A DNA stretch of 64,000 nt from Actinomycetota bacterium (GTDB lineage Bacteria; Actinomycetota; Geothermincolia; Fen-727; Anoxymicrobiaceae), in assembly GCA_018831265.1 (NCBI GenBank), contig JAHJCO010000059.1, positions 76,708 through 140,707 of the forward strand, written 5' to 3'. A program made the position numbers and the translations under genes. The notes under the pieces are model-generated. The model was not told the DNA's origin, did no database searches, and worked only from the letters and a program-made list of their open reading frames with translations. This document shows positions 9,798 through 50,390 of this stretch, in pieces (position 1 is the first letter of the stretch; each line of letters begins with the position of its first letter).

Positions 9798-10171
9798 CCA
9801 GGTATGGAGCCGCAAGGCCGGCCAGGCCCGACAAGGTCGAACGTGGCCAGATCTGGATTGTCGACTTCGAGCCCGTTCTTGGCAAGGAGATGAACAAGGA
9901 GAGGCCGGCGCTTGTCCTTTCATCTGATATCCTGAACTCGAGCGGCTGGCGGCTGGCAACAGTTATCCCCTTTTCAACGAAACGCATGGAAGGCAACGAA
10001 TTGCGCCTGGAGGTAAGACCGCCTCTTGGAGGCCTTCGCGAAACGAGCTTCGCCGTCTGTGACTATCTAAGGACGATTTCGCAGGCGCGCCTCATGAGCT
10101 ATCTCGGTCGCCTTCCCGCGGGATTGATCTCCGAGATCGGTGAAAGGGTTCGAATATCCCTGGAGATATAG
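9794..10171 (+). CDS. MazF/PemK-family toxin endoribonuclease
   Basis: 'GQIWIVDFEPVLGKEMNKERPALVLS' signature of PemK/MazF. Confidence 0.85.
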   Translation: MTRYGAARPARPDKVERGQIWIVDFEPVLGKEMNKERPALVLSSDILNSSGWRLATVIPFSTKRMEGNELRLEVRPPLGGLRETSFAVCDYLRTISQARLMSYLGRLPAGLISEIGERVRISLEI

Positions 10172-31155: not shown

Positions 31156-31861
31156 TCGCAGGATGGACACCGAGGTGCCCGGCCACTCCGGCGACGCTGA
31201 AGCCGCGATCTCTAATGGCACTCCTGATAACGTCGTTCCTCGCGCCGGCGTCCTTGGTGCCCTTGAGGAGTGAGTTCAGTATCAGCGCCTGGTCTTTCAT
31301 GCTGGAGGCTTCGTGAAGCCCCGCGAGAACGTACCCGGTGAATTCTTCACGCGCCCTGGAGGGATTGTCTGAGAAGCATCCGAGAACGAAAGAGGTCGTC
31401 AGGAAGTCGGGTTCAATACAGAGGCCGGCCGTGGCTGAGTAACTGCTCCACCTCCAGTTCTCCGGGGACCCAGCCATGCCTTCCTTGACTGGATTGAGAA
31501 AGATATAGCGGAACAAGGCAAACAGGTGACGCTCGTTCTCCACTAGCGGAGAAAGAAACCTGCCCTGAACGACATGTCCAATCCTCTTGTGCTTCCATGC
31601 GAAGTACCGGCAGTAGTTTCCGTTCAGCTGCTGCATTCCCTCAGAAAGGTTGGCCTCGGGCGTTTCGATCAGAATGTGATAGTGGTTTCCCATCAGGCAG
31701 TAAGCATGGCAGTTCCAACGGAAATCGCGGATCGTGCCAGCCAGTCCCTTGATGAACACGCGACGATCTCCGTTCGTCAGAAAGATCTTCTGTTTATCGT
31801 TCCCTCGGGACATGACGTGGTAGAAAGCCCCTGGGAACAGCTGTCGCGGCTGTCGCCCCAT
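31130..31861 (-). CDS. REP-associated tyrosine transposase (RAYT; IS200/IS605 Y1 HUH family) with C-terminal HTH
   Basis: HUH motif 'GNHYHILIE'; Y1 transposase fold length; C-terminal 'LGVHPATIYRALKD' HTH; flanked by palindromes (31097-31125 and gtgtgcaagttgcacac at ~31890). Confidence 0.85.
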   Translation of the reverse strand: MGRQPRQLFPGAFYHVMSRGNDKQKIFLTNGDRRVFIKGLAGTIRDFRWNCHAYCLMGNHYHILIETPEANLSEGMQQLNGNYCRYFAWKHKRIGHVVQGRFLSPLVENERHLFALFRYIFLNPVKEGMAGSPENWRWSSYSATAGLCIEPDFLTTSFVLGCFSDNPSRAREEFTGYVLAGLHEASSMKDQALILNSLLKGTKDAGARNDVIRSAIRDRGFSVAGVAGHLGVHPATIYRALKD

Positions 31862-31973
31862 GAAGCAATTCTAGCAAGCAAAACAAGCGTGTGCAAGTTG
31901 CACACCTGAAAAGGTCACGAATAATACTCCCGCCGTGTTTTTTTCGCAACGGCGTCTGGCACCATTGCGAAAG

Positions 31974-33143
31974 TCAGATCCAGCCGCGTTTCGCCATGAA
32001 GTTCACCAGCGGACGGCCCAGGCCCGACTTGTACAGGAGCGGAAGTCGCTTCACCGAGGCCTCGTCGTTGCCGCCCTTCATCAGGGGGGCGAGCTTGCCG
32101 AACCCCAGACCCCGGTCCCGGGCCAGCAGGGCCGTCATGTGCATCTGTCCCTCCGGCAGGACGAGGTCACTCGGCCTGGATATAAGGCTCATCGCCCCGC
32201 TGGGGCAGGTGGAGACGCACAGCCCGCAGCCGATGCACCTGTCGGGGTCCACCCGCATCGACCCCTCCCGCGAGACCAGCGCCTCCATCTGGCAGCGCTC
32301 GACGCAGGTCTCGCACTCGTTGCAGAGGTCCGAGTCGATGCGGGCCTGGAAGTTGGTGTAGACGGCCTCGGCCGGCCTCTCGTGCATCTTGAGGAGCTTG
32401 AGCACCCCGCAGCAGCACGAGCAGCAGCAGCATATGTTGATTATCTCCTTGCAGTTGGTCGGTGCGAGCACCAGGCCCGCCTCCTCCGCCCGATCGAGTA
32501 TCTTCAGGGCTTCGTCGACGTCGATCTTCCTGCCTTTGCCGTAGTCGACGTAGTACCGGGCGCCGAGCCCGAAGATGAGGCAGGACTCCAGCGGCTTGTC
32601 GCAGCCCCTGTCCACGAGGTGCTGGGCCTTGCGGCAGATGCAGTCGGCGACCGCGACCTCCGTCTGCCCCTTTACCATCTCACGGACCATGTCGTAGCTG
32701 CCTATGGTCGTGGTCGCCTCGACGGCCGAGTTCACCGGCACCACCCGGAACTGCTTGACCACCGTGTCCGCGAAGTACGGGTCTATCTCCTCCGCGAGCT
32801 CGACGTACTCCCTGTCGATGCTGTCCACGTGGAACTCGTGGATCCCCACAACGAACTGGGCCGCCTGGTAGAACCTGTCCTTCCCGCTCCTCAGGCTCAG
32901 TATGAGGCCCTTGCGCGCCATGGACTCGAGCTTCTGCTCCGCTTCGGCCGCGGGGATTCCCAGGCGCTTCGCGATAGCGCCGGCGGGCTCGGGGAACTGG
33001 CGGAGCTTCATGGTCAGCTCCGCCTCCTCCGGGGTGAAGAACTTCCGGAGTATATCCAGCTCTTTTCCGGTCGGGGTCTCGGGGTAGCCCCCCGGGAGCC
33101 TGTCGAGGAACTCTCGCAGTTCGACGTAAACGGTCTCTGCCAT
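31974..33143 (-). CDS. 4Fe-4S dicluster-domain protein with poly-Cys run (CCCCSCCC) and N-terminal wHTH-like region
   Basis: 'CNECETCVERC' and 'CIGCGLCVSTCP' ferredoxin motifs; 'NICCCCSCCCG'; start MAETVYVEL; the track's extension to 33272 is unsupported. Confidence 0.65.
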   Translation of the reverse strand: MAETVYVELREFLDRLPGGYPETPTGKELDILRKFFTPEEAELTMKLRQFPEPAGAIAKRLGIPAAEAEQKLESMARKGLILSLRSGKDRFYQAAQFVVGIHEFHVDSIDREYVELAEEIDPYFADTVVKQFRVVPVNSAVEATTTIGSYDMVREMVKGQTEVAVADCICRKAQHLVDRGCDKPLESCLIFGLGARYYVDYGKGRKIDVDEALKILDRAEEAGLVLAPTNCKEIINICCCCSCCCGVLKLLKMHERPAEAVYTNFQARIDSDLCNECETCVERCQMEALVSREGSMRVDPDRCIGCGLCVSTCPSGAMSLISRPSDLVLPEGQMHMTALLARDRGLGFGKLAPLMKGGNDEASVKRLPLLYKSGLGRPLVNFMAKRGWI

Positions 33144-33238
33144 GGGATCCCCCTTAGTCTTTGCGTGGTATGCAAATATAATACATGCGAGCGGCGGAAC
33201 GCCGCCAGCATTCGTCCCGCGAACGGAGGTGCCGTCCA

Positions 33239-33993
33239 TGCGACGCAACGGTAAGTACACATCGATAGCCATAGCGCTCCTCCTGGCCGCGGCGCTCGCG
33301 GCGGGCGGCTGCGGGGAGCAACCTTCACTGGCCTACGATTCTTCCGGCGGGAACGTGGTGGTGCAGGTGGAATCCGGCGGGGGGCTGGCGCCCTTCTACC
33401 TCGACACCGTGCCTTCCTTCCGCGCCTTCGGTGACGGTCGGGTCGTGAAAGCGGCGGACGATACCAGGAACAACAGCCTGCTACTGGAAGGAACGCTGGG
33501 GGACGGCGGGGTGGAGGGCCTGCTCGAGAGCATCGAGAAGGCGGGGTTTTTCGACCTGAAGGATTCCTACCGCGACGACAGGGTGATGGACGGGGTCACC
33601 GTGAGCGTCACCGTTTCGCTGAAAGACGGGAGGAAGAAGGTAGACGTCTACATGACCGAGGTGCCGGAGTTCGCCGCCACGCTGAAGGCCGTCAATGGAT
33701 TCCCGGTCACGGGCGAACACCCCTACGTCCCTGAAGAGGGGTATCTCTACGTCACCCGGCAGAACGAGCCGCCGAAGGACCCTCGGGTCCCACCGGACGA
33801 CATCGCCGCCCTGATACCCGGGGTACAGATACTCGAGCCGGCCGATTCCGCCAACGAGCCCGTGGTGGTCCCGGGCGGGGAATTCGTGAAGATAAAGGAG
33901 TGGGAGGTGACGCAGAAGTATTCGGGCCTGGACGTGCTGTCCGGAGGGACATGGTTCAAGGTCTACCCGGTGTACGAGAAGCGCGAGTACTAG
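33239..33993 (+). CDS. Lipoprotein, function unknown
   Basis: Signal peptide with lipobox 'LAAGGC'. Confidence 0.55.
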
Positions 33994-34070
33994 CGCGTAC
34001 GGACGCCCCGCGTGTCACTGGGACGGGCGATAATGATCGGTATGAAGAGACTCACGTCCCGGGAGTGTCT

Positions 34071-37000
34071 GTGAACTTCCAGAGCAACACCCTGGTCGAG
34101 GCCATCGCCTCGCTGTGCGCGGAAGAGCCGTTGAAGCCCAAGATCATAATCGCGCCCTCCAACCGGGCCGGGAACCAGTGGCTCGAGCGCGTCGCCATGT
34201 CGGGCCGTCCGGTCCTGAACGCCGGCTCCCGGACGCTCCGGGGGCTCGCCCTCGAGCTGTCCGCTCCCCTGCTGGTCGAGCGGGGGCTGCAGCTGGTGGG
34301 AGGCATCCGCGCACAGGTTCTGATGGACAGGGCCTTCGCCCGTATCTCCCCGAAAGAGCCTTACCTGTCTCGTCTCGAGCCGGGGCCGGGCCTGGTCCGC
34401 ACCCTGCTCGGAGCCGTGAGGGACCTTCGCCTCGCCGGGCTGGATGCGGACGCCGTCGACGAGCGCGCGTTCGAGGTGAGGTCCAAGGGCGCCGAGGTGA
34501 AGGCGCTCCTCGAGGCGTTCGAATCCGTGCTGGCGGAGGGCGGCTTAACCGACTACGCAGGGTGTCTCCGCCTTGCCGTCGAGCGCGTCACCTCCGATAG
34601 AGGGCTCCCGCTCGACTCCCTTGTGGCGATCCCCGCGGACCTCGAGGAGCGCCTGGCGGGCCTCGAACGCTCTCTCTGGTCGGCGATGCCTGAGAGCAAC
34701 CGTCGCATACTCGAGGTGGACCTGCCCGGCGACCCGAGCACCGACTCCTCGCGTCGTTACATGCTGAGCTTCGCCCTGCACCCCCAGACCGCGCCCGACC
34801 CCGGGCCGGACGGCGGCGGAGTCAGGATGTTCCGCGCGGTGGGCGAGGTCAACGAGGTCCGAGAGGTCTTCAGGCGGGTCGTCGAGGAGGGCCTGCCCTT
34901 CGACGACGTCGAGGTGTTGTACACCGAACCGGCAACGTACCTCCCGCTCCTGTTCGAGCTGGCCTCCCGCCAGGCGGCCGACGGGTCCGATGAGCTCCCG
35001 GTGACCTTCCTGGAGGGCGTCCCCACCCGGTACTCGAGGCCCGGAAGGGCACTGGCCGGGTGGCTGGAGTGGGTGAGGGGGGGCGATCTCCCCCAGGGTA
35101 CGCTGGTCCGCATGGTCCACGACGGGTTGCTCGAGATACCCGCGGTCGAGGGCGGCGATCTGAGCTTCGCGAGGCTGGGCGCGATACTACGGTCGGTGGC
35201 GATCGGGGCCGGGCGCGAGAGGTACCTGGCCTCGCTGGACTCGGAGGCCCGCGCCCTGACCTCGCAGATCGTGGGGCTGGACGAGGCGGAGGAGGAAGGG
35301 CGCGACGCGCGGAGACGTATCGGCCTCTCGGAGCGCCTGGAGGGCCTGGGCGCGCTGCGCGAGCTCATCGGCGGCCTCCTCGAGGTAGTCCCTTCCACCG
35401 GTGGGCAGGCGGAGGCGCTCAGCTCCGCGTCGCTGTTCCTCGAGAGGTACGCGAGGCACTCGGGGAAGTTCGACGAGTACAGCAGGGTGATACTGCTCGA
35501 CTCGGTGGCCGAGATCGAGCGGTGCCTCCAGGACGGCGAGGTTGCCGGCTTCGAACCCTGGAGCTGGCTCGATGAGGTGATCTCCTCGATCAGCGTCGAG
35601 GGATCGGGGCCTGCCCCGGGCCGGCTGCACACGGCCCCTGTGGACAAAGGCGGTCATTCCGGCCGCGGGCACACGTTCATCGTCGGCTTCGACGAGGCCC
35701 GGTTCCCCGCCGCGGGCAGGCAGGACCCCGTTCTGCTGGATGGCGAGAGAGAGCGGCTGTCGGACGATCTGCTCACGGGAGAAGCGAGGCTCACGCGCGA
35801 GCTGGAGCAGCTGATGCTGCTGTTCGCCCGGTTGAGGGGCGAGGTGACCTTGAGCTACTGCTGCCGGAGCCTCATCGACGATCGCGAGCTGTTCCCGAGC
35901 CCGGTGCTGCTGTCCGCCTACCGCGTGCTGGAGAAGCGCGACGGCGACCAGCAGGACCTGAACGCATACTGCGGGGACCCGGTCTCTTTCGCGCCGGCGT
36001 CGCCGGAGAGCGCCATCGACACCACCGAGTGGTGGCTTTCTCTCGCGTGCGGTCGGACCGACCGGCTGGTCCCGACCGGACTGGTCGTGGCGAGTTTCGG
36101 CCACCTGGGGCGCGGGATGAGGGCGCGCGAGATGAGGGAGAGCCCGGAGTTCACCGAGTACGACGGCTACGTGCCCGAGGCCGCCTCGGAGTGCGATCCC
36201 GCGCGCGAGGGGGCGAGGCCGCTCTCGGCGTCCGCCCTCGAGGAGCTCGCGAGGTGCCCGCTGGAGTATTTCCTCCACCGTGTCCTGCGCATAGATCCGC
36301 TCGAGGAGTACGAGATCGACCCCAACGAGTGGCTGGACGCCAGGCAGGTCGGCCACTTTCTCCACGGCTGCTTCAGGATCTTCCTCGAGCGCCTGGACGA
36401 GCGGGGCGAGCGCCCGAGCCGGGACGCCCACCTCGCCGAGCTGCGGCGCCTGTTCGACGATGAGCTCGCATACTGGCGGCGCGTGGTGCCTCCACACAAC
36501 GAGGCTTCCTACAAGGCCCAGGCCAGGATGCTCGAGCGCGCCGCCTGCATCTTCCTGACGGAGGAGGAGCTGCACTGCGTCGACAGGCGGCCTGCGTACT
36601 TCGAGGTCTCGGTGGGTCGGATGCCCGACCTGCCCGGGAGGCGAGGCAACGAGATAGACACCGCCGAGCCCGTGCTTGTCTCCCTGCCGAAGGGGATGGT
36701 CTTCCGCGCCCACGGGCAGATGGACAGGGTGGACGAGCTCCCTGGCGCACCCGAGGGCCGTCGCTTCGAGGTCTGCGACTACAAGTCGGGCGGCGCCGGC
36801 CGGTACGACGTCAACGACCCGTTCGCCTGCGGCCGTCACGTGCAGAACATCCTGTATACGCTGCTCCTGCAGAGCAGGCTCGACGAGCTCTTTCCGGGCG
36901 CGCGCGTAGAGGGTTTCAGCTACTACTTCCCCAGCCTGTACGGAAGGGGTGAGCGGGTGGGATGGACCATGGATGAGCTCGAGGCGGGGGAGACGGTCCT

Positions 37001-37220
37001 CGCGGATCTCTGTGCGATGCTCGCAACCGGCTGCTTCCCGTTCACCATCAACCCGAACCTCGACCTGACCTACAGCGATTTCGTCTTCGCGTACGGCGAT
37101 GTCGCCGATGCCGCCAGGCAGGCGAGAGTCAAGGTAGATAACCTCGCCAACGAGGCGCTGCTGCCTTACCGCGAGCTGCGCGCCCGCGAGCTGGACGAGG
37201 AACAGGAAGAGGGCGAATGA
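34071..37220 (+). CDS. addB: AddB/RexB-like PD-(D/E)XK nuclease subunit (no Walker A)
   Basis: GTG start with GGGAG RBS; C-terminal RecB-type nuclease motif 'FEVCDYKSG'; ~1050 aa; immediately upstream of and overlapping the AddA-like gene. Confidence 0.7.
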   Translation: MNFQSNTLVEAIASLCAEEPLKPKIIIAPSNRAGNQWLERVAMSGRPVLNAGSRTLRGLALELSAPLLVERGLQLVGGIRAQVLMDRAFARISPKEPYLSRLEPGPGLVRTLLGAVRDLRLAGLDADAVDERAFEVRSKGAEVKALLEAFESVLAEGGLTDYAGCLRLAVERVTSDRGLPLDSLVAIPADLEERLAGLERSLWSAMPESNRRILEVDLPGDPSTDSSRRYMLSFALHPQTAPDPGPDGGGVRMFRAVGEVNEVREVFRRVVEEGLPFDDVEVLYTEPATYLPLLFELASRQAADGSDELPVTFLEGVPTRYSRPGRALAGWLEWVRGGDLPQGTLVRMVHDGLLEIPAVEGGDLSFARLGAILRSVAIGAGRERYLASLDSEARALTSQIVGLDEAEEEGRDARRRIGLSERLEGLGALRELIGGLLEVVPSTGGQAEALSSASLFLERYARHSGKFDEYSRVILLDSVAEIERCLQDGEVAGFEPWSWLDEVISSISVEGSGPAPGRLHTAPVDKGGHSGRGHTFIVGFDEARFPAAGRQDPVLLDGERERLSDDLLTGEARLTRELEQLMLLFARLRGEVTLSYCCRSLIDDRELFPSPVLLSAYRVLEKRDGDQQDLNAYCGDPVSFAPASPESAIDTTEWWLSLACGRTDRLVPTGLVVASFGHLGRGMRAREMRESPEFTEYDGYVPEAASECDPAREGARPLSASALEELARCPLEYFLHRVLRIDPLEEYEIDPNEWLDARQVGHFLHGCFRIFLERLDERGERPSRDAHLAELRRLFDDELAYWRRVVPPHNEASYKAQARMLERAACIFLTEEELHCVDRRPAYFEVSVGRMPDLPGRRGNEIDTAEPVLVSLPKGMVFRAHGQMDRVDELPGAPEGRRFEVCDYKSGGAGRYDVNDPFACGRHVQNILYTLLLQSRLDELFPGARVEGFSYYFPSLYGRGERVGWTMDELEAGETVLADLCAMLATGCFPFTINPNLDLTYSDFVFAYGDVADAARQARVKVDNLANEALLPYRELRARELDEEQEEGE

Positions 37221-40200
37221 CCGTGCAGCCCGCGAGCCAGCCACCCCCGGACCAGGACCAGCGCGACCTGATCGTCAGCGCGCTCGACCGCAACGTTGTG
37301 GTCGAAGCCGCGGCCGGAACTGGGAAGACCACCAGCATGGTGGACCGCATGGTGGCGCTGCTTCGCACGGGTGCGTGCGACGATATCCGGAGGATGGCGG
37401 CGGTGACGTTTACCCGGAAGGCCGCCTCCGAGCTGCGCGACCGCTTCAGACTTGCCCTGGAGAAGGCCGTGCGCGGGGCCGCCGGCGACGAGAGGGGGCG
37501 CCTTGCCGGGGCGCTGGACAGCATAGACCAGTGCTTCGTGGGTACGATCCACTCGTTCTGCGGCCGGCTGCTCCGCGAGCGGCCCATAGAGGCGGGGGTG
37601 GACCTCGCCTTCGAGGAGCTCGACGAGGACGCCGATATGCGCCTGCGCCAGGAGGCATGGGCGGCATATGCCGAGTCGGTGATAGGGCTCGGCCCGGGGA
37701 GCGTGATCGACGAGCTCGACGACCTCAACCTGGACCTGTCCGACCTCGCCGACACCTTCTACAGGTTCGCCGAGTACCCGGACGTGGACGACTGGCCCCT
37801 GCCTCCCGAGAGCGAAATGCTCGAGGACCTCGACGAGGCGGCAGTAGCGGTGAAGCGTTTCACGGAGCGCATGAGGAAGCTCGCCGACAGGCTGCCCAGG
37901 GAGTGCGGCTCGGACCGGCTGATGCCGCGCTACTCGAAGATGCCGAGGGTGGTATCGCACTACGAGGACCTGAGCGAACGCGCTTCCATGCTCGAGCTCA
38001 TCGACATGTTCTTCGACAAGCGCTCGGGCGCGGTGCTAAAGGAGTGGGTGCAGAAGGGCGGGTTTACCCAGGAGGAGGCGCGCTCGGAGCGCGAGGCCTG
38101 GGACGCTTTCCGCGAGGAGTTCGCCGCGCCGCTCGCCGAGGCGTGGCGGGAGCTTCGCTACCGCACGGTCATGAAGGTGATAACCGAGGCCGGGGCCGTC
38201 TACGATCGCATGAGGGCGGAGCGCGGCCAGCTCGACTTCCAGGACCTGCTGATGAAGGCGGCCGGCCTGCTCAAGGGGAGCCCTCACGTGCGCTCCTACT
38301 TCGCAGGGCGCTACTCGCACCTGCTGGTCGACGAGTTCCAGGACACCGATCCCATACAGGCGGAGGTCATGCTGCTGCTTACCGCTACCGACCCCCGCCA
38401 GGACGACTGGCGCCTGTGCGTGCCCCGCGGCGGGTCGCTGTTCGTTGTGGGGGACCCCAAGCAGTCGATATACCGGTTCCGCAGGGCAGACATCGTTACC
38501 TACAACAGGGTGAAGCGGATGATCCTGGAGGGCGACGGCGGGAAGGGCCGCGGCATCGAGGTCCGGCTGTTCGCCAACTTCCGCACGTCGGCGGCCGTCA
38601 TCCAGTGGATAGACGAAGTCTTCGCGCCCAAGGGTGACTGCACGGACAAGTCCGGCAGGCTGGTTTGCTTCCCGGAGGCGGCCTCCGAGCAGTCTCCGGC
38701 CTACGTCCGGCTGGAGGCCGGCCGGAGCGAGTCCCTTCAGGGCGAGCTGGGAGGAGTGTTCCAGTTGACCATACCCTCCGACGAGATCCTGCTCACCTCC
38801 CACCTCGTGGAGGGCGGACCGCCGACCGCGCAGGAGGCCGCGGTCCTGGCGCGCCGGTACACCAGGAGCGAGCTTGCGGCGTCCTACGAGGCGGACCTCA
38901 TCGCCCGCTACATCCGGTGGGCGATAGACGATCGCGTCACCGTTCCCCGAAGCGAGAAGGAGCTCGAGGATATCCACAGGCGCATGCCCTCGTGCGAGGA
39001 CCCGGCCGCGCTTCGGGCCGAGGACTTCCTGATCATCACGCGAAACAAGACCCACCTGAGCACCTACGGCCAGGCACTCCAGAGGTACGGCATCCCGCAC
39101 CGGGTGACGGGGGGCACTGCCCTGAACGAGGTGGAGGAGCTCCGGCTGCTGCTGACCTGCCTCCGTGCGGTGGACAGGGTCGATGATCCCGTGGCGCTGG
39201 TCGGGGCACTGCGGAGCGAGCTGTTCGGCATCAGTGACGCGGCGCTATACCGGTTCAGGAGGAACGGCGGCCGATTCAACTACAACGGCCCGGTTCCCGA
39301 GGGGCTGCCCCCCGGGGACGAGGAGGCCATCACCGACGCCTTCGACAGGCTGCGCCGGTACCGCGGCTGGGTGAAGACCATGCCACCGCTGGCCGCCTTC
39401 GAGAAGGTCGTCTCGGACCTGGGGCTGATGGTGCTGGCCGCGACCCGCGACGGCGGAGACGTCCAGGCGGGCAGCCTCGGCAAGGCGCTCGAGTTGCTCA
39501 GGGGTGACCAGCGCGCGCACTGGAGCACCTCCCACCTGGTCGATTTCCTCGCCGACCTGGTCGAGGGCGAGTTCAGCTACGACGGGGTGTCGGCACGGTC
39601 ACATGAGGTCGGGGCGGTGAGGGTGATGAACCTCCACAAGGCCAAGGGGCTGGAGTCCACGGTGGTGTTCCTCGCCGACGGCTCCGGCGAGCCCAGGTCG
39701 GGCCCGGAGATCGTCATCGACCGCGGCGGCGACCGGACGATCGGCTACATCGGAGTGTTCGGCCCGAGGTGGGGCGCCTGGTACAGGCCCCTGCTGGCGG
39801 CGCCGGGCGGCTGGGCGGACCGCCAGGCGGTCGAGAAGGAGTTCGAGGCCGCCGAGAGGCTGAGGTTGCGCTACGTGGCGGCCACCAGGGCGGGCTCGGC
39901 GATGATCGTGTGCGAGCGCGAGGACGGCAGGGCCAACGGCTCCAATCCCTGGAAGTATTTCAGGGATCACCTCGCCGGGGTGCCCGACCTGCCTGACCCG
40001 GGCCCGAGGAGCGCACCATCACGGGAGGCGCTCGACATCTCGGTGGAGGACGTGACGAAGGCTTCAGAGGAGGCGGCCGGCAGGATGCGGCGCGCAGAAG
40101 GTCCCACCTACGCGAGGCTCGCGGCCAAAGAGTACGCGCTCCGGGGAAAAGATTTTGCAAAAGGGTCAGGCACTTTTGCACCATCAACCACGGGCGGGCC

Positions 40201-40684
40201 GGAGTATGGCATCAACTGGGGCACCGCCATGCACATGCTGCTGGAGCTGGCTATGAGCCGGCCGGGCTTCGATGTCGAGGCCTGGGCGGAGAGGGTGCTG
40301 GGGGAGAACGAGATCGATCCGGGTGAGACGCCGCGGGCGGTGGAGACCGTCCGGGCGGTCACCGGATCGGCGTTGTGGGAAAGAGCCCTTGCCTCCGACC
40401 TGTGCCTGACGGAGGTCCCGTTCCACATGCTCCTCGGGGATGCGGACATCCCCACCACGATGAACGGGGCCATGGACCTGGCTTTCCGCGAGGAGGGGGG
40501 TTGGGTCATAGTGGACTACAAGACCGACAGGATAAGCGCATCGAGGAGCGAGCGGGCCCTGGCGGACGAGTACGCCCCGCAGCTCGAGCTGTACGGCCGG
40601 GCCTGGGCGGGGTGCACCGGCGAGACCGTCAAGGAGACCGGCCTGTTCTTCGTGGACAACCGTACATACCACAGGATCAGATGA
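37217..40684 (+). CDS. addA: AddA/RecB-like UvrD-family helicase with C-terminal PD-(D/E)XK nuclease
   Basis: Walker A 'AAGTGKTT', 'TFTRKAASELRDR'; C-terminal 'GWVIVDYKTDRI'. Confidence 0.85.
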   Translation: MTVQPASQPPPDQDQRDLIVSALDRNVVVEAAAGTGKTTSMVDRMVALLRTGACDDIRRMAAVTFTRKAASELRDRFRLALEKAVRGAAGDERGRLAGALDSIDQCFVGTIHSFCGRLLRERPIEAGVDLAFEELDEDADMRLRQEAWAAYAESVIGLGPGSVIDELDDLNLDLSDLADTFYRFAEYPDVDDWPLPPESEMLEDLDEAAVAVKRFTERMRKLADRLPRECGSDRLMPRYSKMPRVVSHYEDLSERASMLELIDMFFDKRSGAVLKEWVQKGGFTQEEARSEREAWDAFREEFAAPLAEAWRELRYRTVMKVITEAGAVYDRMRAERGQLDFQDLLMKAAGLLKGSPHVRSYFAGRYSHLLVDEFQDTDPIQAEVMLLLTATDPRQDDWRLCVPRGGSLFVVGDPKQSIYRFRRADIVTYNRVKRMILEGDGGKGRGIEVRLFANFRTSAAVIQWIDEVFAPKGDCTDKSGRLVCFPEAASEQSPAYVRLEAGRSESLQGELGGVFQLTIPSDEILLTSHLVEGGPPTAQEAAVLARRYTRSELAASYEADLIARYIRWAIDDRVTVPRSEKELEDIHRRMPSCEDPAALRAEDFLIITRNKTHLSTYGQALQRYGIPHRVTGGTALNEVEELRLLLTCLRAVDRVDDPVALVGALRSELFGISDAALYRFRRNGGRFNYNGPVPEGLPPGDEEAITDAFDRLRRYRGWVKTMPPLAAFEKVVSDLGLMVLAATRDGGDVQAGSLGKALELLRGDQRAHWSTSHLVDFLADLVEGEFSYDGVSARSHEVGAVRVMNLHKAKGLESTVVFLADGSGEPRSGPEIVIDRGGDRTIGYIGVFGPRWGAWYRPLLAAPGGWADRQAVEKEFEAAERLRLRYVAATRAGSAMIVCEREDGRANGSNPWKYFRDHLAGVPDLPDPGPRSAPSREALDISVEDVTKASEEAAGRMRRAEGPTYARLAAKEYALRGKDFAKGSGTFAPSTTGGPEYGINWGTAMHMLLELAMSRPGFDVEAWAERVLGENEIDPGETPRAVETVRAVTGSALWERALASDLCLTEVPFHMLLGDADIPTTMNGAMDLAFREEGGWVIVDYKTDRISASRSERALADEYAPQLELYGRAWAGCTGETVKETGLFFVDNRTYHRIR
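40156..40180. repeat. REP hairpin (TGCAAAAG-GGTCAGGCA-CTTTTGCA) embedded in frame in the AddA-like CDS
   Basis: Encodes ...DFAKGSGTFAP... in the linker before the nuclease domain. Confidence 0.75.
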
Positions 40685-41514
40685 GCGAGCACATGCTTCT
40701 GCCCGAGGTCGACTTCTGCGCCTTCGACCTGGAGACGACGGGGCTGTCCAACTTCAGCCGGATAGTGGAGGTCGGGGCGGTCCGGTTCCGCCTCGAGGCG
40801 GTGCACGACCGTTTCAGCGAGCTGGTCCACCCCGGCAGGAGCATCCCCGAGGTGGTCATCGGCATACACGGAATCACCGACACCATGGTCGCGGGGGCCG
40901 CGGCGGCGCCGGAGGTTATCGATCGGTTCTTCGAGTTCGCGGACGGGTGCGTTCTAGTCGCGCACAACGCGGCGTTCGACTCCGGGATAATGGCCACCGA
41001 GTTGCACAGGGCCGGGCTGGAGCCGCCCGAGCCCCTCATCCTCGACACCATCGCGCTGGCCAGGAGGTTCCTGCCGAGGCTGCCGAGCTACGGGCTGGGC
41101 GCCCTCTCGCGCGATCTGGGCATCGGGCGGCCCCGCAAGCACCGCGCCCTCGAGGACGCGGAGGCCTGCAGGAGGATCTTCGAGAGAACCGTGCTCTCGG
41201 TCCCGGAGTGGCAAGGCCGGCCACTGGACCTGCTGGCCGATGCCGCCGGCGGCTGCACCCTGCGCTACCGGCCGCAGGCGCCCTCCGATCTGCCCCCCGG
41301 CATGGAGGCCATCCTCGCCGCCCTCGAGAGGCGCGGTGACGTGGTGGTAGTCTACAGGGGGGGCAGCAAGGGCACCGTGCCCAGGCGACTGTCGCCGGTA
41401 TCGGTGTACTCGGCGGGGGGTCACTGCTACATGGAGGCCCGCTGCCACGTGGACAACGTGACCAAGTCTTTCAGGGTCGACCGCATCGCCAGCGTAGAGC
41501 TCTGGGAGGACTGA
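40681..41514 (+). CDS. DEDDh 3'-5' exonuclease (DnaQ-like) fused to a C-terminal WYL-like domain
   Basis: Exo I 'FDLETTG', Exo II 'LVAHNAAFD', Exo III 'HRALEDA'; C-terminal 'VVVVYRGGSKG...RLSPVSVY..HCYMEARC...SFRVDRI' WYL pattern; ATGA overlap with the AddA-like gene. Confidence 0.7.
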   Translation: MSEHMLLPEVDFCAFDLETTGLSNFSRIVEVGAVRFRLEAVHDRFSELVHPGRSIPEVVIGIHGITDTMVAGAAAAPEVIDRFFEFADGCVLVAHNAAFDSGIMATELHRAGLEPPEPLILDTIALARRFLPRLPSYGLGALSRDLGIGRPRKHRALEDAEACRRIFERTVLSVPEWQGRPLDLLADAAGGCTLRYRPQAPSDLPPGMEAILAALERRGDVVVVYRGGSKGTVPRRLSPVSVYSAGGHCYMEARCHVDNVTKSFRVDRIASVELWED

Positions 41515-41521
41515 GCTTCCC

Positions 41522-43204
41522 ATGGCCAGGATGATCCCCGAGATAGAGGTCGGCCGGTATCCCCACGGCGAGGGACTCCTCTACCGCTGGCTCAAGGGGC
41601 TGCCCGACGATTACCGCGTCTTCCACGGCGTCCACCTGCTCCGGCAGTCCGGCGGCTCGCTGAGGCGCGGAGAGGCCGACTTCGTGGTGCTCCACAAGGA
41701 CCTGGGCTTCCTGGTGATAGAGGTCAAGGGCGGCAAGGTCACCTGCCAGCCGGGTAGGGGCCGGTGGACCTCGACGGACTACCGGGGCGAGGAGCATCCG
41801 ATCAAGGACCCGTTCCTGCAGGCTGAACGCAACGTCAACGCCATCGTCGAGCGCATCAGGGACTCAGGGGTGTTCGGCCCCGGCCCGCTGAAGACCCTGC
41901 CCGTCACGGTGGGCTACTGCGTAGCCTTCCCCGACGGGGTGGCGCAGCAGAAGAACCTCCCGCTGCACGTGGTGCCGGAGGTCGTCATAGACAGCCGGGA
42001 CGCGGCCCGGATGGCCGCGCGGATCGAGGGGCTGTTCGGCGCCTGGCGAAAGAAGAGGCCCGGATCGCGCGGCTTCACCCCCCGGGAGTTCAACGACCTG
42101 TGCAACAAGGTCCTGCTCACCCGGTTCAACGTGACCGTGCCCCTGAGCGTGAGATTCGGGAGGGAGAAGGAGCGCTTCGAGTCCCTGACCGACGAGCAGT
42201 GCCGCATCCTGGAGACCGTCTCCGGCGGGAAGCGCGCCCTGTTCAGGGGATACGCGGGGACGGGCAAGACGCAGTTGCTGATGGAGAACGCCAGGCGCTT
42301 CGCCGCCGCCGCCGCCCGGGTACTGGTGGTCTGCTACAACCAGCCGCTCGCGGAACTCCTCTCACAGTGGGCCGCGAACGTCTGCGGAGCCGGAGGCGTA
42401 ACGGTCAGGCACTTCCACGGCCTCGCCGAGGAGTATGCCGGCGAGGCGGGTCTCGACTTCGATGTCCCGCCGGAGGACGAGCCGGACGCGCTGCAGGCCT
42501 TCTACGAGAGGGGATCGGCGGCCCTGCTGGAGGCGGCGCTTGCCGAGGCGCCCGGACGTTTCGATTGCGTGCTGGTGGACGAGGGCCAGGACTTCCACCT
42601 GGAGTGGCTGCGGGTGCTCTCGGAGCTGCTCGACCCGGCGGGGATGGACGTCTTCCACATCTTCTACGACGAGCAGCAGAACGTCTACGGCAAGGAGCTC
42701 GAGTTCCCCTTCGAGGCCGTGCCCTACGACCTGAGCTATCAGATGCGCAGCACCGCGAACGTCTGCGAGGTCGCCCGGAAGGCCGGCTCGGTCGATATCC
42801 GGTGCTTCCCAGACTGGGTCAAAGGTGCCCCCGTGAAGTACTTCCCCTACCGTGAACCGTCCGAGCAGGTCGCCCTGATCGAGAAGGTGGTCAGGGAGCT
42901 TCTCGACAAAGGCATCGACCCCTCACAGGTGATGGTGATCTCGTCACACCGCAGGGCCCGCTCCTGCCTGGCCGGGGTCAACCGACTGCAGGGGTACCCG
43001 CTGGTGGAGTACCGGCCCCCCGGCGAGGAGGACACCATCGCGTTCTCCAGCCTGCACCGCGCCAAGGGCCTCGAGTCGGACGTGGTGATCTTCTGTGACG
43101 TGGACGGCGGCGAGCCGTACTGCAGCCGCTCAAACCAGTACGTGGCGGTCTCGCGCGCCCGCCACCTGCTCTACATCATCCACCGCAGGGACTGGAAGCT
43201 TTGA
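41522..43204 (+). CDS. NERD-domain nuclease fused to SF1 (UvrD/DUF2075-like) helicase
   Basis: N-terminal NERD 'GEADFVVLHKDLGFLVIEVKG'; Walker A 'GYAGTGKTQ', Walker B 'VLVDEGQD'; C-terminal 'SLHRAKGLESDVVIF'. Confidence 0.75.
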   Translation: MARMIPEIEVGRYPHGEGLLYRWLKGLPDDYRVFHGVHLLRQSGGSLRRGEADFVVLHKDLGFLVIEVKGGKVTCQPGRGRWTSTDYRGEEHPIKDPFLQAERNVNAIVERIRDSGVFGPGPLKTLPVTVGYCVAFPDGVAQQKNLPLHVVPEVVIDSRDAARMAARIEGLFGAWRKKRPGSRGFTPREFNDLCNKVLLTRFNVTVPLSVRFGREKERFESLTDEQCRILETVSGGKRALFRGYAGTGKTQLLMENARRFAAAAARVLVVCYNQPLAELLSQWAANVCGAGGVTVRHFHGLAEEYAGEAGLDFDVPPEDEPDALQAFYERGSAALLEAALAEAPGRFDCVLVDEGQDFHLEWLRVLSELLDPAGMDVFHIFYDEQQNVYGKELEFPFEAVPYDLSYQMRSTANVCEVARKAGSVDIRCFPDWVKGAPVKYFPYREPSEQVALIEKVVRELLDKGIDPSQVMVISSHRRARSCLAGVNRLQGYPLVEYRPPGEEDTIAFSSLHRAKGLESDVVIFCDVDGGEPYCSRSNQYVAVSRARHLLYIIHRRDWKL

Positions 43205-43212
43205 CTAGGATA

Positions 43213-43260
43213 GGGGTCAGGCACCATTCAAGTCATTTGACTTGAATGGTGCCTGACCCC
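43213..43260. repeat. Perfect 48-bp palindrome (GGGGTCAGGCACCATTCAAGTCA tt TGACTTGAATGGTGCCTGACCCC) between convergent genes
   Basis: 23-bp perfect arms; sits between the stops of 41522-43204 (+) and 43321-44544 (-). Confidence 0.85.
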
Positions 43261-43320
43261 GGGTCTAGTCACGCGCGGGGCTGAGAGCCCCGCCTCAAAG
43301 CCCCGCCTCGACAGCCCTCT

Positions 43321-44544
43321 TTAGAACCAGTCCGTCGTCCTGACGTTGGGCTGGTAGAGCATGCCGTAGAGGTCCATCGCGTAGCGGTCGGTCATGCCGG
43401 CGAGGTAGTCGCAGACCACGCGCTCGGCAGGCTCGCTCTCGAGGTCCTCCACCAGGGGAGCGGGGAGCATGTCCGGCTTGGAGGTGAAGGTCTCGTACAG
43501 GCCGCCTAGGATCTTCTCGCCCTTGAAGATCATCCGGCTGACGATCGGGTTCAGGTAGACCTCCTCCAGCATGGCGAGCGCGAAGGCGTGCACCTGGGAG
43601 TCTATGCCCGGCGAGAACGATACCAGCGGGTCGGGCAGCCCGCGCAGGGCCTCGGGGGTCCCCGCTCCCGCCCTGCTCATCCGCGCCACGGTCTCCCTCG
43701 CCACGTCGGTGATGAGGGCATTAATCATCCCGCTTATGGCCCGCATCCGCCCGACGTCCGTTCGGCTGGCGCCCAGGTCCCAGCCGGGGTCCTCGATGGA
43801 GTCGACCATCACCCGGGCGACCTGCGCGATGAGCGGCATCTCCGAGGCCCGCTCCCCGAGCCAGTCGGCGCTGACCAGCCCGATCCTGAGCGCGTCGTCC
43901 AGGTCGTGCGTGCACCAGGCGATGGTGTCGGCGACGTTGACCACCTGGCACTCGGCCGAGGGCTGCGGGTAGGCGGAGAACTCCTCGAGCACCGGCGGCT
44001 CGTCGAACAGCGTCCTGTGCCGCGCCAGCCCCTCGCGCGTCTCCCAGCAGAGGTTAAGGCCGCGGAACGACGGGTAGCAGCGCTCGAGCCAGTCGACCAC
44101 CCGCAGGCCGTGGAGGTTGTGGTCGAAGCCGCCGCCGTCCTTCATCAGCGCGTCCAGGGCGGTCTCACCGCCGTGCCCGAACGGGGGGTGCCCGATGTCG
44201 TGCACCAGGGCGATGGCCTCGGCCAGCGTCTCGTTGAGCCCGAGCATGCGCGCCAGCGAGCGGGATATCTGCATGACCTCAATGGTGTGGGTCATGCGGG
44301 TGCGGTAGAGGTCTCCCTCGTGGGTCACGAAGACCTGGGTCTTGTACTGGAGCTTGCGGAACGAGGAGGAGTACAGGATGCGGTCGCGGTCGAGCTGGAA
44401 GCGCGGGCGCTCCGGCTGGGGCGGCTCCTCGCACGCCCTGACCCGGCCGGCCTTCGCGGGCAGGTCGGTCCCCAGGGACGCCAGGGGCGACAGCTCCCCG
44501 CGCTCGCTGTCGTCGAAGTATGATGCGCCGCGCAGATCGACCAT
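43321..44544 (-). CDS. dgt: dGTPase-family HD phosphohydrolase
   Basis: HD motif 'HDIGHPPFGH'; dGTP triphosphohydrolase-like length and motifs. Confidence 0.85.
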   Translation of the reverse strand: MVDLRGASYFDDSERGELSPLASLGTDLPAKAGRVRACEEPPQPERPRFQLDRDRILYSSSFRKLQYKTQVFVTHEGDLYRTRMTHTIEVMQISRSLARMLGLNETLAEAIALVHDIGHPPFGHGGETALDALMKDGGGFDHNLHGLRVVDWLERCYPSFRGLNLCWETREGLARHRTLFDEPPVLEEFSAYPQPSAECQVVNVADTIAWCTHDLDDALRIGLVSADWLGERASEMPLIAQVARVMVDSIEDPGWDLGASRTDVGRMRAISGMINALITDVARETVARMSRAGAGTPEALRGLPDPLVSFSPGIDSQVHAFALAMLEEVYLNPIVSRMIFKGEKILGGLYETFTSKPDMLPAPLVEDLESEPAERVVCDYLAGMTDRYAMDLYGMLYQPNVRTTDWF

Positions 44545-44546
44545 GG

Positions 44547-45857
44547 TCAGCCCCGGTCCCGGCCTTCGGAGAAGTAGTTGATGAAGAACTGGGGGTTCAG
44601 CTCCGGCGCGAAGTAATGCTTGTGCTTTATCCAGACGAAACCGTCGCTCCGGGTGATCACCGCGACGTCGATGGGACCGCCCACCGACTCGGCGGCGAAA
44701 GACATCCTGGTCCTGAACGAGGTCAGGTTGACGAGCGACTCGGCGATCTCGGACAGCTCGTTCTTGGGCAGGCCCGCTATGACGTCTATGACCGGTATCA
44801 CGTACTTCTTGCGCCGGAACGCCGCGAGCTCCCTGGGTATCTCGGCGGCCCCTTTCCGGATCGAGTCCGCCCGCTTGCGGTAGTCCTCCTTGTCGCCGGC
44901 GTCCTTCAGCTCGCCGATGAGCCCCTCGACCAGCTCCCGGTAAGCGTCGAGCGCGACGCCATACCTGTTGAACACTGTATCGTTGTAGGCGGGCTCCGCG
45001 CCTTCCATGAATGCGTTCACCATCTCGCGGCGCGCGAAGGGGATAACGGCCGCCCGCGTGCCGGAGCCCGTGCCGGACACCCGGTCCTTCTTGAAACGAA
45101 GGTGGTCGCAGACCACGCCGCCCACCAGGAACTCGACCACGGTGGGGAAGATGTCCTTCTCGCCGAAGCCGGCCACCACCACGCCGGAGAGAGTGCCGAA
45201 CTGCGGTGCGGACGGGGACTTGATGAAGATATCGAGAGCCAGCCTGTTGAGCCTGCCCGAGTACGACGGGGAGGCGGGCCAGCGCCGGAACACCTTCCTG
45301 CGGATCTCCCTGATGACCTTCCCGTACTCGCCCTCGAGTCGCTCCGGGAGGTCGGCCGGCGTGCCTGGAAGCTCCTCGGCCTTGTCCCAGACCTTCAGTA
45401 TCGCGCGAAAGGCCTTGTTTGCCGCCTCCCGCTTCTGCTCGTCGGTGGCCGCGGGGTTCTCCTCGACCAGCGAGTTGACCGCGTCACGGAGGACGTTCTT
45501 CACTAAAACGAAGCAGTCAGTGACCGTGGCGGCGAAGTAATCGCGCTGCTCGGACTCGGGGTACAGGCGCATCTCGCCGGAGAGAAAGCCCATGAAATCG
45601 TCGGCGTACTCCTCGAGCGTGTCGAAACACCCCGCGCCGAGCCTCTCCTGGTAGAGGGACACCACGGTCTCCCAGGGCACTCCCATGTGGTTGGCGCCGC
45701 CGAACATCATCACCCCGACCGGGCACTTCCTGGAAAGCGTGAATATCTTGTTGGCGGAGGTGATGACCTTCTCGTCGCGGCCCTTCTGTATGGTCACGGC
45801 GCTATCGGCGGCCAGCGCCACCGCTTCCCTGTTCATAACCACTATCTCGGCGGTCAT
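44547..45857 (-). CDS. Proteasome beta-subunit-type Ntn hydrolase homologue with large insertions
   Basis: 'TAEIVVMNREAVALAADSAVT' matches proteasome beta N-terminus (Thr1); 'GSGTGSGT' and C-terminal 'GGPIDVAVITRSDGFV' match beta-subunit motifs; 436 aa vs ~200; start ATG at 45857 with GGAGG RBS (track start 45926 lies in repeat DNA). Confidence 0.55.
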   Translation of the reverse strand: MTAEIVVMNREAVALAADSAVTIQKGRDEKVITSANKIFTLSRKCPVGVMMFGGANHMGVPWETVVSLYQERLGAGCFDTLEEYADDFMGFLSGEMRLYPESEQRDYFAATVTDCFVLVKNVLRDAVNSLVEENPAATDEQKREAANKAFRAILKVWDKAEELPGTPADLPERLEGEYGKVIREIRRKVFRRWPASPSYSGRLNRLALDIFIKSPSAPQFGTLSGVVVAGFGEKDIFPTVVEFLVGGVVCDHLRFKKDRVSGTGSGTRAAVIPFARREMVNAFMEGAEPAYNDTVFNRYGVALDAYRELVEGLIGELKDAGDKEDYRKRADSIRKGAAEIPRELAAFRRKKYVIPVIDVIAGLPKNELSEIAESLVNLTSFRTRMSFAAESVGGPIDVAVITRSDGFVWIKHKHYFAPELNPQFFINYFSEGRDRG

Positions 45858-45865
45858 GCACACCT

Positions 45866-45985
45866 CCGGGGTCAAACCTGGTTCTTTGCATTTCTTGCAT
45901 TTGGGGTCAAACCTGAGATCTTGCATACCCCTGACGACTGCAACAAGAACGTAAGAAACGCAGAATCTCAGGTTTGACCCCTAGA
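45866..45985. repeat. MITE-like element, family 4: 17-bp perfect inverted repeats GGGGTCAAACCTGAGAT ... ATCTCAGGTTTGACCCC plus extra half-copy
   Basis: IRs at ~45902-45918 and 45966-45982; half copy at ~45868. Confidence 0.75.
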
Positions 45986-46079
45986 TTATGTCACAGCCCT
46001 GTCAGGGCCGCTCCGCGCGCCCTGCCGTGGGTGTACAATCGACGTGCAGGCGATCATCGAGTGCCGGGGTTGGCGTATT

Positions 46080-46535
46080 ATGCGGCGCAGGAGTACGTCC
46101 GGGACGCTCTTCACCATAGGGTACGAGGGTCTGAGCCCTGGTGACCTGGTGAAGACACTGCGGCACAACGGTGTCGAGCTCGTCTTAGACGTCCGCCAGC
46201 GGGCCTCCAGCCGCAAGGCCGGTTTCTCCAAGTCGGTCCTGAAGTCCAACCTGGAGAAGCACGGGATAAGCTACCAGCACTTCCCCGAGCTCGGCAGCCC
46301 ACCAGACCTGCGAAAGAAGTACAACGCCGACGGTGACCGCGCCTACTTCATCCGGCACTACAGGAACTCGCTCGAGGGCAAGGGTTCCATCCTGCAGGAG
46401 TTGGCCAACCTCGCCTCGACGATGCCGGTCGCGCTGGTCTGCTACGAGGCCGACCCGGGCCATTGCCACCGCTCGATCGTGGCCTCCGAGATGGCCCGCC
46501 TGTCGACGCCCGCCCTCCAGGTCCAGGACCTGTAA
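46080..46535 (+). CDS. DUF488-family protein
   Basis: 'TLFTIGYEG...VLDVRQ...GISYQHFPELG' DUF488 pattern. Confidence 0.65.
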   Translation: MRRRSTSGTLFTIGYEGLSPGDLVKTLRHNGVELVLDVRQRASSRKAGFSKSVLKSNLEKHGISYQHFPELGSPPDLRKKYNADGDRAYFIRHYRNSLEGKGSILQELANLASTMPVALVCYEADPGHCHRSIVASEMARLSTPALQVQDL

Positions 46536-50313: not shown

Positions 50314-50390
50314 TGGAGCCCCGGGCGGGACTCGAACCCGCGACCTACGGATTAGGAATCCGTCGCTCCATCCGTCTGAGCTACCGGGGC
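50314..50390 (-). tRNA. tRNA-Arg (anticodon CCU)
   Basis: Cloverleaf: acceptor GCCCCGG/CCGGGGC, D-stem GCTC/GAGC, anticodon stem ACGGA/TCCGT with loop TTCCTAA, T-arm GCGGG-TTCGAGT-CCCGC, encoded CCA. Confidence 0.85.

Follow-up and report, generated by a model that had tools for sequence, protein, structure and literature searches.

A Single-Chain NERD Nuclease–Helicase Encoded Beside DNA-End-Processing Genes in an Actinobacterial Lineage

We have analyzed a stretch of 64,000 nucleotides (nt) from an Actinomycetota bacterium of the Geothermincolia (Anoxymicrobiaceae; GenBank assembly GCA_018831265.1, contig JAHJCO010000059.1, positions 76,708 to 140,707), which we call the window and number from its first letter. 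Our subject is a plus-strand gene at 41522–43204 that starts with ATG and encodes a protein of 560 amino acids (aa), in which a nuclease domain of the NERD type is joined to a superfamily 1 (SF1) helicase; it was delineated from its open reading frame (ORF), from Pfam and PADLOC profiles, from homologues, and from an AlphaFold2 model. This gene stands at the end of a close-packed row of four plus-strand genes, in the order addB–addA–exonuclease–helicase. The addB-like nuclease subunit (33900–37220, plus strand) carries a PDDEXK_1 domain (Pfam, E = 5.9e-22) and gives weak matches to addB/rexB models; its start is uncertain, the protein being 1106 aa long if read from the GTG at 33900 as against 1061 aa as called in a 97%-identical relative. 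The addA-like helicase-nuclease (37217–40684, plus strand, 1155 aa) contains UvrD-helicase (E = 4.4e-50) and PDDEXK_1 domains in Pfam and matches the addA model TIGR02784 at 1.7e-66, under its equivalog cutoff. The third gene (40681–41514, plus strand, 277 aa) encodes a fusion of a DEDDh (RNase T/DnaQ-like) 3′-5′ exonuclease to a WYL domain (Pfam RNase_T, E = 1.9e-30; WYL, E = 2.2e-11). ATGA overlaps join addB to addA (37217–37220) and addA to the exonuclease gene (40681–40684), and only 7 nt separate the stop codon of the exonuclease gene from the ATG of the helicase gene. Convergent with the helicase gene is a gene for a dGTP triphosphohydrolase (dGTPase; 43321–44544, minus strand, 407 aa; Pfam HD and HD_assoc), which scores 363.8 bits against the housekeeping model NF002326 (cutoff 390) versus 240.6 bits against the antiphage_dGTPase model (cutoff 400). 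A scan of 33000–46200 revealed no promoter-like sites, and terminator-like sites were as numerous as expected from shuffled sequence.

Judged by its sequence, the product of 41522–43204 is a NERD/PD-(D/E)XK nuclease and a complete SF1 helicase core in one chain, with the predicted catalytic motifs intact. The nuclease domain comprises residues 1–212 (41522–42157), with a core at residues 16–112 (41567–41857) that matches the Pfam family NERD (PF08378; E = 1.9e-12, 48.1 bits against a gathering cutoff of 22.1). Candidate catalytic residues, placed by alignment, are E17 (41570–41572), E51-A-D53 (41672–41680), and E67-V-K69 (41720–41728). The helicase core (42188–43189), delimited by motif conservation, by Foldseek, and by a sequence search of the PDB, has the full, conserved set of SF1 motifs (Q, I, Ia, II, III, IV, V, and VI). 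All on the plus strand, these include the Q motif TDEQ (42188–42199), the Walker A sequence RGYAGTGKTQ (residues 242–251; 42245–42274), the Walker B sequence CVLVDEGQDF (residues 349–358; 42566–42595), motif III, IFYDEQQNVY (42659–42688), motif IV with R409 (42731–42754), motif V, HRAKGLESDV (43052–43084), and motif VI, YVAVSRARH (residues 540–548, with SRAR at 544–547; 43133–43165). In Pfam, UvrD_C_2 (PF13538) matches residues 507–553 with 35.3 bits (cutoff 27.4) and UvrD_C reaches 26.7 bits against a cutoff of 25.6, the UvrD-type C-terminal domains together spanning residues 504–554; the first RecA-like lobe gave matches to AAA_30, AAA_19, and UvrD-helicase that were all below cutoff.

These motifs are well kept in an alignment of 25 full-length homologues that range from 28% to 78% identity. 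In the nuclease domain E17 and D53 are invariant. In the helicase the invariant positions are Q226; G243, A245, G246, G248, K249, and T250; D353, E354, Q356, and D357; D383 and Q386 of motif III; R409; G516; and R545 and A546 of motif VI. E51, E67, K69, K515, and E518 are kept in at least 90% of the sequences. Conservation on this scale greatly exceeds what chance would give. A separate alignment of 19 nuclease domains showed E51, E67, and K69 to be invariant as well, as were E17 and D53 in both alignments. A preliminary description of the gene had pointed to a NERD domain with an E-A-D…E-V-K pattern and to the helicase sequences GYAGTGKTQ (residues 243–251) and VLVDEGQD (residues 350–357), and all of these are borne out, the NERD match standing above its cutoff and the helicase sequences being retained by relatives as distant as 28% identity. 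The same description called the helicase UvrD/DUF2075-type. The first half of that label agrees with the UvrD_C and UvrD_C_2 matches, whereas assignment to the DUF2075/SLFN-g3 helicases (PF09848) fails, the 560-aa protein having no match to that family at E ≤ 0.01; for several homologues, precomputed matches to PF09848 do exist.

For the helicase half, the predicted fold agrees with this picture. A full-length AlphaFold2 model built on the 25-sequence alignment had a mean pLDDT (the predicted score in the local distance difference test) of 88.8. In Foldseek its helicase half matched SLFN11 (7e-18), Upf1 (2.6e-14), and UvrD (4.5e-14), together with SLFN14, Dna2, and RecD2, and the template-modeling (TM) scores were higher for UvrD (0.46–0.49) than for Upf1 (0.37–0.40). 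The nuclease domain modeled alone (residues 1–212) had a pLDDT of 89.5; its structural neighbors were weak (best E = 4e-3), and those ranked highest were mostly PD-(D/E)XK nucleases (VC1899, Shedu SduA, Cas4, Card1, Bax1, and NucS). Sequence and fold prediction together place an SF1 motor and a PD-(D/E)XK (NERD) active site, both predicted to be competent, in one chain. A sequence-profile search of the PDB returned HelD (1.4e-24), UvrD1, SLFN11, PcrA, and GajB, and no solved structure with both the nuclease and the helicase halves. Although HelD was the best of these matches, the protein is not a HelD-like transcription factor: the match covers the C-terminal helicase lobe only, and the N terminus is a nuclease. 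HelD carries an N-terminal domain of its own type, unlike the NERD nuclease. Matches to TAL effectors in the same database were judged spurious, as they consist of many weak repeats against residues 434–527, no stretch of which is significant alone.

We next looked at the company that the gene keeps in its lineage. We gathered close relatives (53%–78% identity) from contig look-ups, from a scan of metagenomes, and by tblastn of the window's neighbors against the loci fetched, and told lineages apart by pairwise identity, about 14 distinct lineages being scorable. The preliminary description had taken fixed synteny in the lineage as an argument for a housekeeping role, and largely fixed synteny is what we found. 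A DEDDh exonuclease, with or without the WYL domain, lies immediately upstream on the same strand (gaps of approximately 7–130 nt) in nine of 12 evaluable lineages, the dGTPase gene lies at most 2 kb downstream in 11 of 14, and addB–addA lies at most 10 kb away in six of ten. The addB–addA pair occurs in two layouts, upstream and fused into the operon, as in the window, or beyond the dGTPase gene, as in other lineages. In two deeper lineages at 54% identity (L095, 4186–11271, and L096, 37–1891), both without the exonuclease, sbcD–sbcC lies directly upstream and co-directional; in L095 the helicase gene is followed by a co-directional dGTPase gene. On contigs that carry these genes together, identity to the window is 62%–64% for the helicase, 65%–67% for the dGTPase, 46% for AddA, 41% for AddB, and 44% for the exonuclease, and by this measure the helicase is inherited with its neighbors and is under no less constraint than they. 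We conclude, from gene order and sequence, that the exonuclease and helicase form a vertically inherited module in the Geothermincolia-type lineage, and the clustering with AddAB or SbcCD and with the dGTPase is shown by the same comparisons to be stable in the lineage and tolerant of rearrangement.

Turning to family membership, the best profile for the protein was PADLOC PDLC03813, "RTasNERD-Hel" (E = 2.1e-55, 186.8 bits). This profile represents cluster 485 of Mestre et al. 2022, an uncharacterized NERD-helicase that accompanies seven of 17 reverse transcriptases of the UG34 group (PMC9226505). The window protein shares with it the order of N-terminal NERD and C-terminal helicase, but no reverse transcriptase domain was detected by Pfam within 10 kb on either side, in the window or in the 97%-identical genome, and a DRT (UG34) system is thereby ruled out. 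A word-indexed search yielded 419 homologues at E ≤ 1e-5, and an exhaustive search yielded 1,341 representatives of 50%-identity clusters at E ≤ 1e-30; the best 150 of these 1,341 are mostly proteins of approximately 530–590 aa that align over nearly their full length. The nearest homologues come from metagenome-assembled genomes (MAGs) of Actinomycetota (Candidatus Geothermincolia, Anoxymicrobiaceae, and Anoxymicrobium japonicum), and NCBI names members of the family only "NERD domain-containing protein." By its sequence, the window protein is thus a typical member of a NERD-helicase family that databases recognize.

The preliminary description had also spoken of an architecture like that of Nhi of Staphylococcus epidermidis, which reportedly breaks down the replication intermediates of phages (PMC11084316, PMC10732053). 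The resemblance in layout stands: both are single polypeptides in which an N-terminal nuclease region precedes an SF1 helicase, the P-loop lying near position 200 of 470 in the PADLOC Nhi model and at residues 243–250 in the window protein. Homology, however, is undetectable past the P-loop. The PADLOC Nhi profile (PDLC02372) scores 17.7 bits (E = 2.8e-4) on residues 222–271 only, with no stretch passing alone, and membership in the Nhi family is ruled out since the score comes from the P-loop. Moreover, nhi is a stand-alone gene, whereas the window gene has a conserved exonuclease partner in an addBA operon. The gene is neither an Nhi orthologue nor a mobile defense-island gene.

We favor the view that the protein is an auxiliary of the processing of DNA ends or of single-stranded DNA (ssDNA) intermediates, a nuclease-helicase that acts with its exonuclease partner and with AddAB or SbcCD, and we hold this view with middling confidence, seeing the question as evenly balanced. 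It ranks first because synteny in the lineage is largely fixed and because links to end-processing nucleases recur in several forms (fused to addBA, adjacent to addBA, and adjacent to sbcDC), and it is the most likely role because the module is inherited vertically beside DNA-end-processing genes and a dGTPase gene of the housekeeping type. In such a scheme the SF1 motor would use ATP to translocate along single-stranded nucleic acid, as its sequence and predicted fold suggest, and the NERD/PD-(D/E)XK site (E17, D53, E67, and K69) would cut the strand, the motor passing the strand it has unwound on to the nuclease, in analogy to AddA/RecB and Dna2. The helicase and the upstream DEDDh–WYL exonuclease would work as a conserved two-gene module; their pairing comes from synteny, and they may interact physically. 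The DEDDh enzyme would trim 3′ ends, and the WYL domain would probably bind ssDNA, an activity reported for DriD (PMC9186387). The pair may share the substrates of AddAB and SbcCD, such as ends, hairpins, and forks, and would then degrade or resect broken, forked, or unprotected linear DNA alongside them. Like that of AddAB/RecBCD, such an activity could serve recombinational repair and destroy foreign linear DNA as a by-product.

Known enzymes offer partial parallels. As in AddA/RecB and Dna2, an SF1 motor and a PD-(D/E)XK nuclease share one chain, and the window gene is co-operonic with addBA; unlike in those enzymes, the nuclease is of the NERD subtype and N-terminal rather than RecB-type and C-terminal, the protein is far smaller at 560 aa, and we saw in it no Fe-S or Chi-recognition features. 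A helicase is paired with a DEDDh 3′-5′ exonuclease for DNA repair in MrfA–MrfB of Bacillus subtilis (PMC11194089) and fused to one in the DinG–exonuclease proteins (PMC12345164), and in archaea the helicase HerA and the nuclease NurA are co-operonic with Mre11/Rad50 homologues (PMC3326311). This last arrangement parallels sbcD–sbcC–NERD-helicase in L095 and in a Planctomycetota MAG (L013, 5406–11665; 32% identity), where sbcD–sbcC is followed by the helicase gene and a divergent addB lies close by. These are functional analogies and not homologies, however, as MrfA and DinG belong to superfamily 2 and HerA to the hexameric FtsK-like ATPases. A more ambitious proposal, which we advance tentatively and consider rather unlikely, is that the NERD-helicase and the DEDDh–WYL exonuclease constitute an unrecognized bacterial auxiliary of end resection, a compact counterpart of HerA–NurA, recruited repeatedly to AddAB (in the Geothermincolia) and to SbcCD (in a deeper lineage and in the Planctomycetota genome), from a family whose other branches are effector subunits of DISARM-, Druantia-, or ARMADA-like systems. 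Such a split would mirror the repair/defense divide described for the YprA/MrfA helicases.

The wider family does in fact present a different face. Among the matches listed we examined 80 loci from species-representative genomes of many phyla (25%–35% identity), clustered their neighbors, and ran Pfam and PADLOC profiles on the clusters. Fifteen of the 80 homologues lie in DISARM-like (DrmA) or DruE-like operons, distant members thus standing directly downstream of DrmA–DrmB or of DruE-like helicases. DrmA adjoins the helicase in nine loci, eight of them with DrmB, usually in the order DrmA–DrmB–helicase with gaps of 0–100 nt. The helicases concerned (25%–30% identity; L016, L050, L055, L078, L079, L080, L085, L086, and also L072, at about position 10001 of the locus) come from Pseudomonadales, Anaerolineaceae, Myxococcales, Slackia, Bradyrhizobium, Paracoccaceae, Vagococcus, and Lachnospiraceae. 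From their gene content these loci look like a DISARM variant with the NERD-helicase at the position expected for the nuclease subunit. In six loci (L020, L039, L040, L045, L035, and L051) a DruE-like YprA-family helicase of approximately 2,000 aa is encoded immediately upstream, and the first four of these also have, after the helicase gene, an ORF of approximately 350 aa and, convergent with it, an SNF2 (BrxH/DpdE-like) gene and a gene for a protein of approximately 1,000–1,100 aa without a Pfam match. This five-gene module recurs on a mobilizable Leisingera plasmid (L116; NZ_CP083555.1, 84863–99889), beside DUF4338 and IS30 genes. By analogy it resembles ARMADA-type systems with the NERD-helicase in place of ArmD, the nuclease-fused UvrD-like helicase encoded by the fourth gene of ARMADA type II (bioRxiv 10.1101/2025.09.15.676423), although ArmD has a RelE-like domain rather than NERD. 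The DEDDh–WYL partner was absent from all 80 loci, and the exonuclease pairing is therefore specific to the clade; outside the clade, DEDDh–WYL exonucleases occur in ordinary, non-island contexts without a NERD-helicase. Taken together, these comparisons of gene content suggest that the NERD-helicase family has both repair-linked and defense-linked branches.

It follows that the window gene must be weighed against an immune role. The exonuclease and the NERD-helicase could be an effector against phages or plasmids that is fixed in the lineage and comparable to the innate-immunity nucleases Nhi, Hna, and Gabija. It would attack foreign replication intermediates or linear DNA and would be stably inherited beside AddAB and the dGTPase, which themselves have anti-phage roles; to this reading we give a substantial minority of our credence. 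The RTasNERD-Hel match speaks for it, and several further observations both support it and weigh against an end-processing role. The second-best profile is a CRISPR-linked NERD+UvrD candidate (PADLOC C3a187, E = 4.5e-29); the DISARM-like and DruE-like operons are as described; family members occur on 29 plasmids; a clade at 41%–43% identity has lost the exonuclease partner and occupies island-like contexts; one homologue at 53% identity sits amid transposases and an integrase; and two neighbors in the window itself have defense-type or phage-borne relatives, namely a 459-aa protein (44547–45926, minus strand) that matches the phage and satellite cargo family phrog_5990, with no function assigned, over its full length (E = 2.4e-104), and a DUF488 protein (46044–46535, plus strand; Pfam E = 2.1e-28, DUF488-N3a subclade), present also in the 97% relative, that matches the PADLOC candidate PDC-M19A (E = 4.2e-37). 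The dGTPase, too, matches the PADLOC dGTPase model (E = 1.8e-91). In a Bacillota MAG (L048, 74–14374) co-directional genes encode AddB, AddA, an McrB-like protein (AAA_5), an McrC-like protein (DUF2357+PDDEXK_7), the product of a 193-aa ORF, the NERD-helicase, and another McrB-like protein of the AAA_5 type, and here a repair operon runs directly into type IV restriction-like genes. Further caution about the end-processing role comes from the distant set, in which only two of 80 loci have AddAB or SbcCD adjacent, not significantly above the estimated chance level of approximately one; from the EamA, ADI, and ABC genes, which are likewise conserved upstream of the locus, so that the synteny may in part be that of a larger collinear stretch handed down passively; and from the literature searched, in which we found no experimental test of any NERD-helicase family member. 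Against an immune effector, synteny and sequence are conserved at least as well as for adjacent housekeeping genes across approximately 14 lineages, and the gene is translationally coupled to addBA. No methyltransferase, reverse transcriptase, DrmA/B, DruE, or other dedicated defense partner lies within 10 kb on either side, and the window contains no SNF2 protein, methyltransferase, or YprA-family helicase, unlike the DISARM, Druantia, and ARMADA loci. The exonuclease partner belongs to a family that is housekeeping-like elsewhere, and the dGTPase is closer to the housekeeping than to the anti-phage model. The preliminary description's view of single-chain nuclease-helicases as a hallmark of several anti-phage or anti-plasmid proteins therefore suits the wider family, often found in defense-type operons, but not the window locus, which is stable and stands with DNA-break-processing genes.

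Two other readings we regard as very improbable. One is that the gene was recently acquired as part of a mobile defense island and is polymorphic for presence or absence, the behavior that the preliminary description had anticipated among close relatives; the opposite was seen, and this reading is already largely refuted. An insertion of approximately 880 bp with an IS200-like Y1 transposase ORF (31095–31975; ORF at 31130–31861, minus strand), which has the lowest GC content in the window (0.563), does lie upstream, the window's sole transfer RNA gene, tRNA-Arg(CCT) (50314–50390, minus strand), lies approximately 7 kb downstream, and some homologues are found on plasmids or amid transposases. 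Yet the locus is collinear with that of the 97%-identical genome (L111), from which the insertion is missing as the sole nearby difference, and this separate, strain-specific element is approximately 2 kb upstream of addB and approximately 10 kb upstream of the helicase gene. Synteny and partners are kept across the more distant relatives of the clade, including those at 54%–64% identity, the GC content of the gene (0.67–0.69) equals that of its flanks with no compositional anomaly, and neither an integrase nor a direct-repeat boundary was seen, the surroundings of the tRNA gene included. The other, to which we likewise attach hardly any weight, is that an RNA helicase resembling Upf1 or SLFN here drives a NERD RNA endonuclease, in RNA surveillance or in defense against RNA phages. 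The NERD domain of ZwsA, reported to be an RNA endonuclease (bioRxiv 10.64898/2026.04.06.716636), provides a precedent, and SLFN11/14 and Upf1 are among the top structural matches. The conserved partners, however, all act on DNA or deoxynucleoside triphosphates (AddAB, SbcCD, the DnaQ-type exonuclease, and the dGTPase), the TM-scores favor UvrD over Upf1, and the sequence profiles matched are UvrD_C and UvrD_C_2.

A nuclease-helicase in a single chain is usually taken for an anti-phage protein on sight, but in this family the label varies with the clade. These proteins of approximately 560 aa supply subunits of DISARM- and Druantia-like operons in many phyla, and in one actinobacterial class the helicase is the stable partner of a DnaQ-type exonuclease, set among AddAB, SbcCD, and dGTPase genes. 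If the link to repair is true, the bacterial processing of double-strand breaks would gain a hitherto unstudied component, and this would be the second helicase family, after YprA/MrfA, to be split between repair and immunity. We found nothing specific in the literature searched on NERD-helicases linked to AddAB or SbcCD, nor on NERD-helicases in DISARM or Druantia, with the exception of TALON systems, which have a separate NERD nuclease. Within that literature, two things seem to be undescribed: that the helicase is paired with DEDDh–WYL specifically in this clade and linked there to AddAB, SbcCD, and dGTPase genes, and that family members occur as apparent subunits of DISARM-like or DruE-like operons. 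The architecture as such is ordinary, and the split between repair and defense is a useful, if unproven, lead.

Finally, we note some features of individual loci. In the 41%–43% identity clade, two loci (L109, 2986–5891, and L110, 9797–12706) share a trio of genes, for a 71-aa ORF, an SMC_N/AAA_23 ATPase of approximately 718 aa, and an ORF of approximately 172 aa, which lies upstream of the NERD-helicase gene at one locus and downstream at the other, with HNH, ARPP-1, and MNT-type nucleotidyltransferase genes close by; the trio may be a separate defense-type module. On a Sphingomonas plasmid (L117; NZ_CP117413.1, 99028–105590) a gene for a 1,618-aa DUF3883 protein is followed after 3 nt by a NERD-helicase homologue, which adds one more large ATPase to the partners of the family. 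In the window, the gene for the 459-aa protein, which has no match in Pfam, NCBIfam, PADLOC, or the PDB, is separated by 2 nt from the dGTPase gene downstream of it, with which it is probably co-transcribed. It is kept in the 97% relative but missing from the other related contigs, on which the slot is taken by transglutaminase-like, zinc-ribbon, or cation-efflux genes. It may be an unrecognized defense or accessory gene. Homologues in phrog_5990 occupy cargo or "moron" sites, between Q/dam and holin in a lambdoid Providencia phage and at the end of the element in Streptococcus satellite phages.

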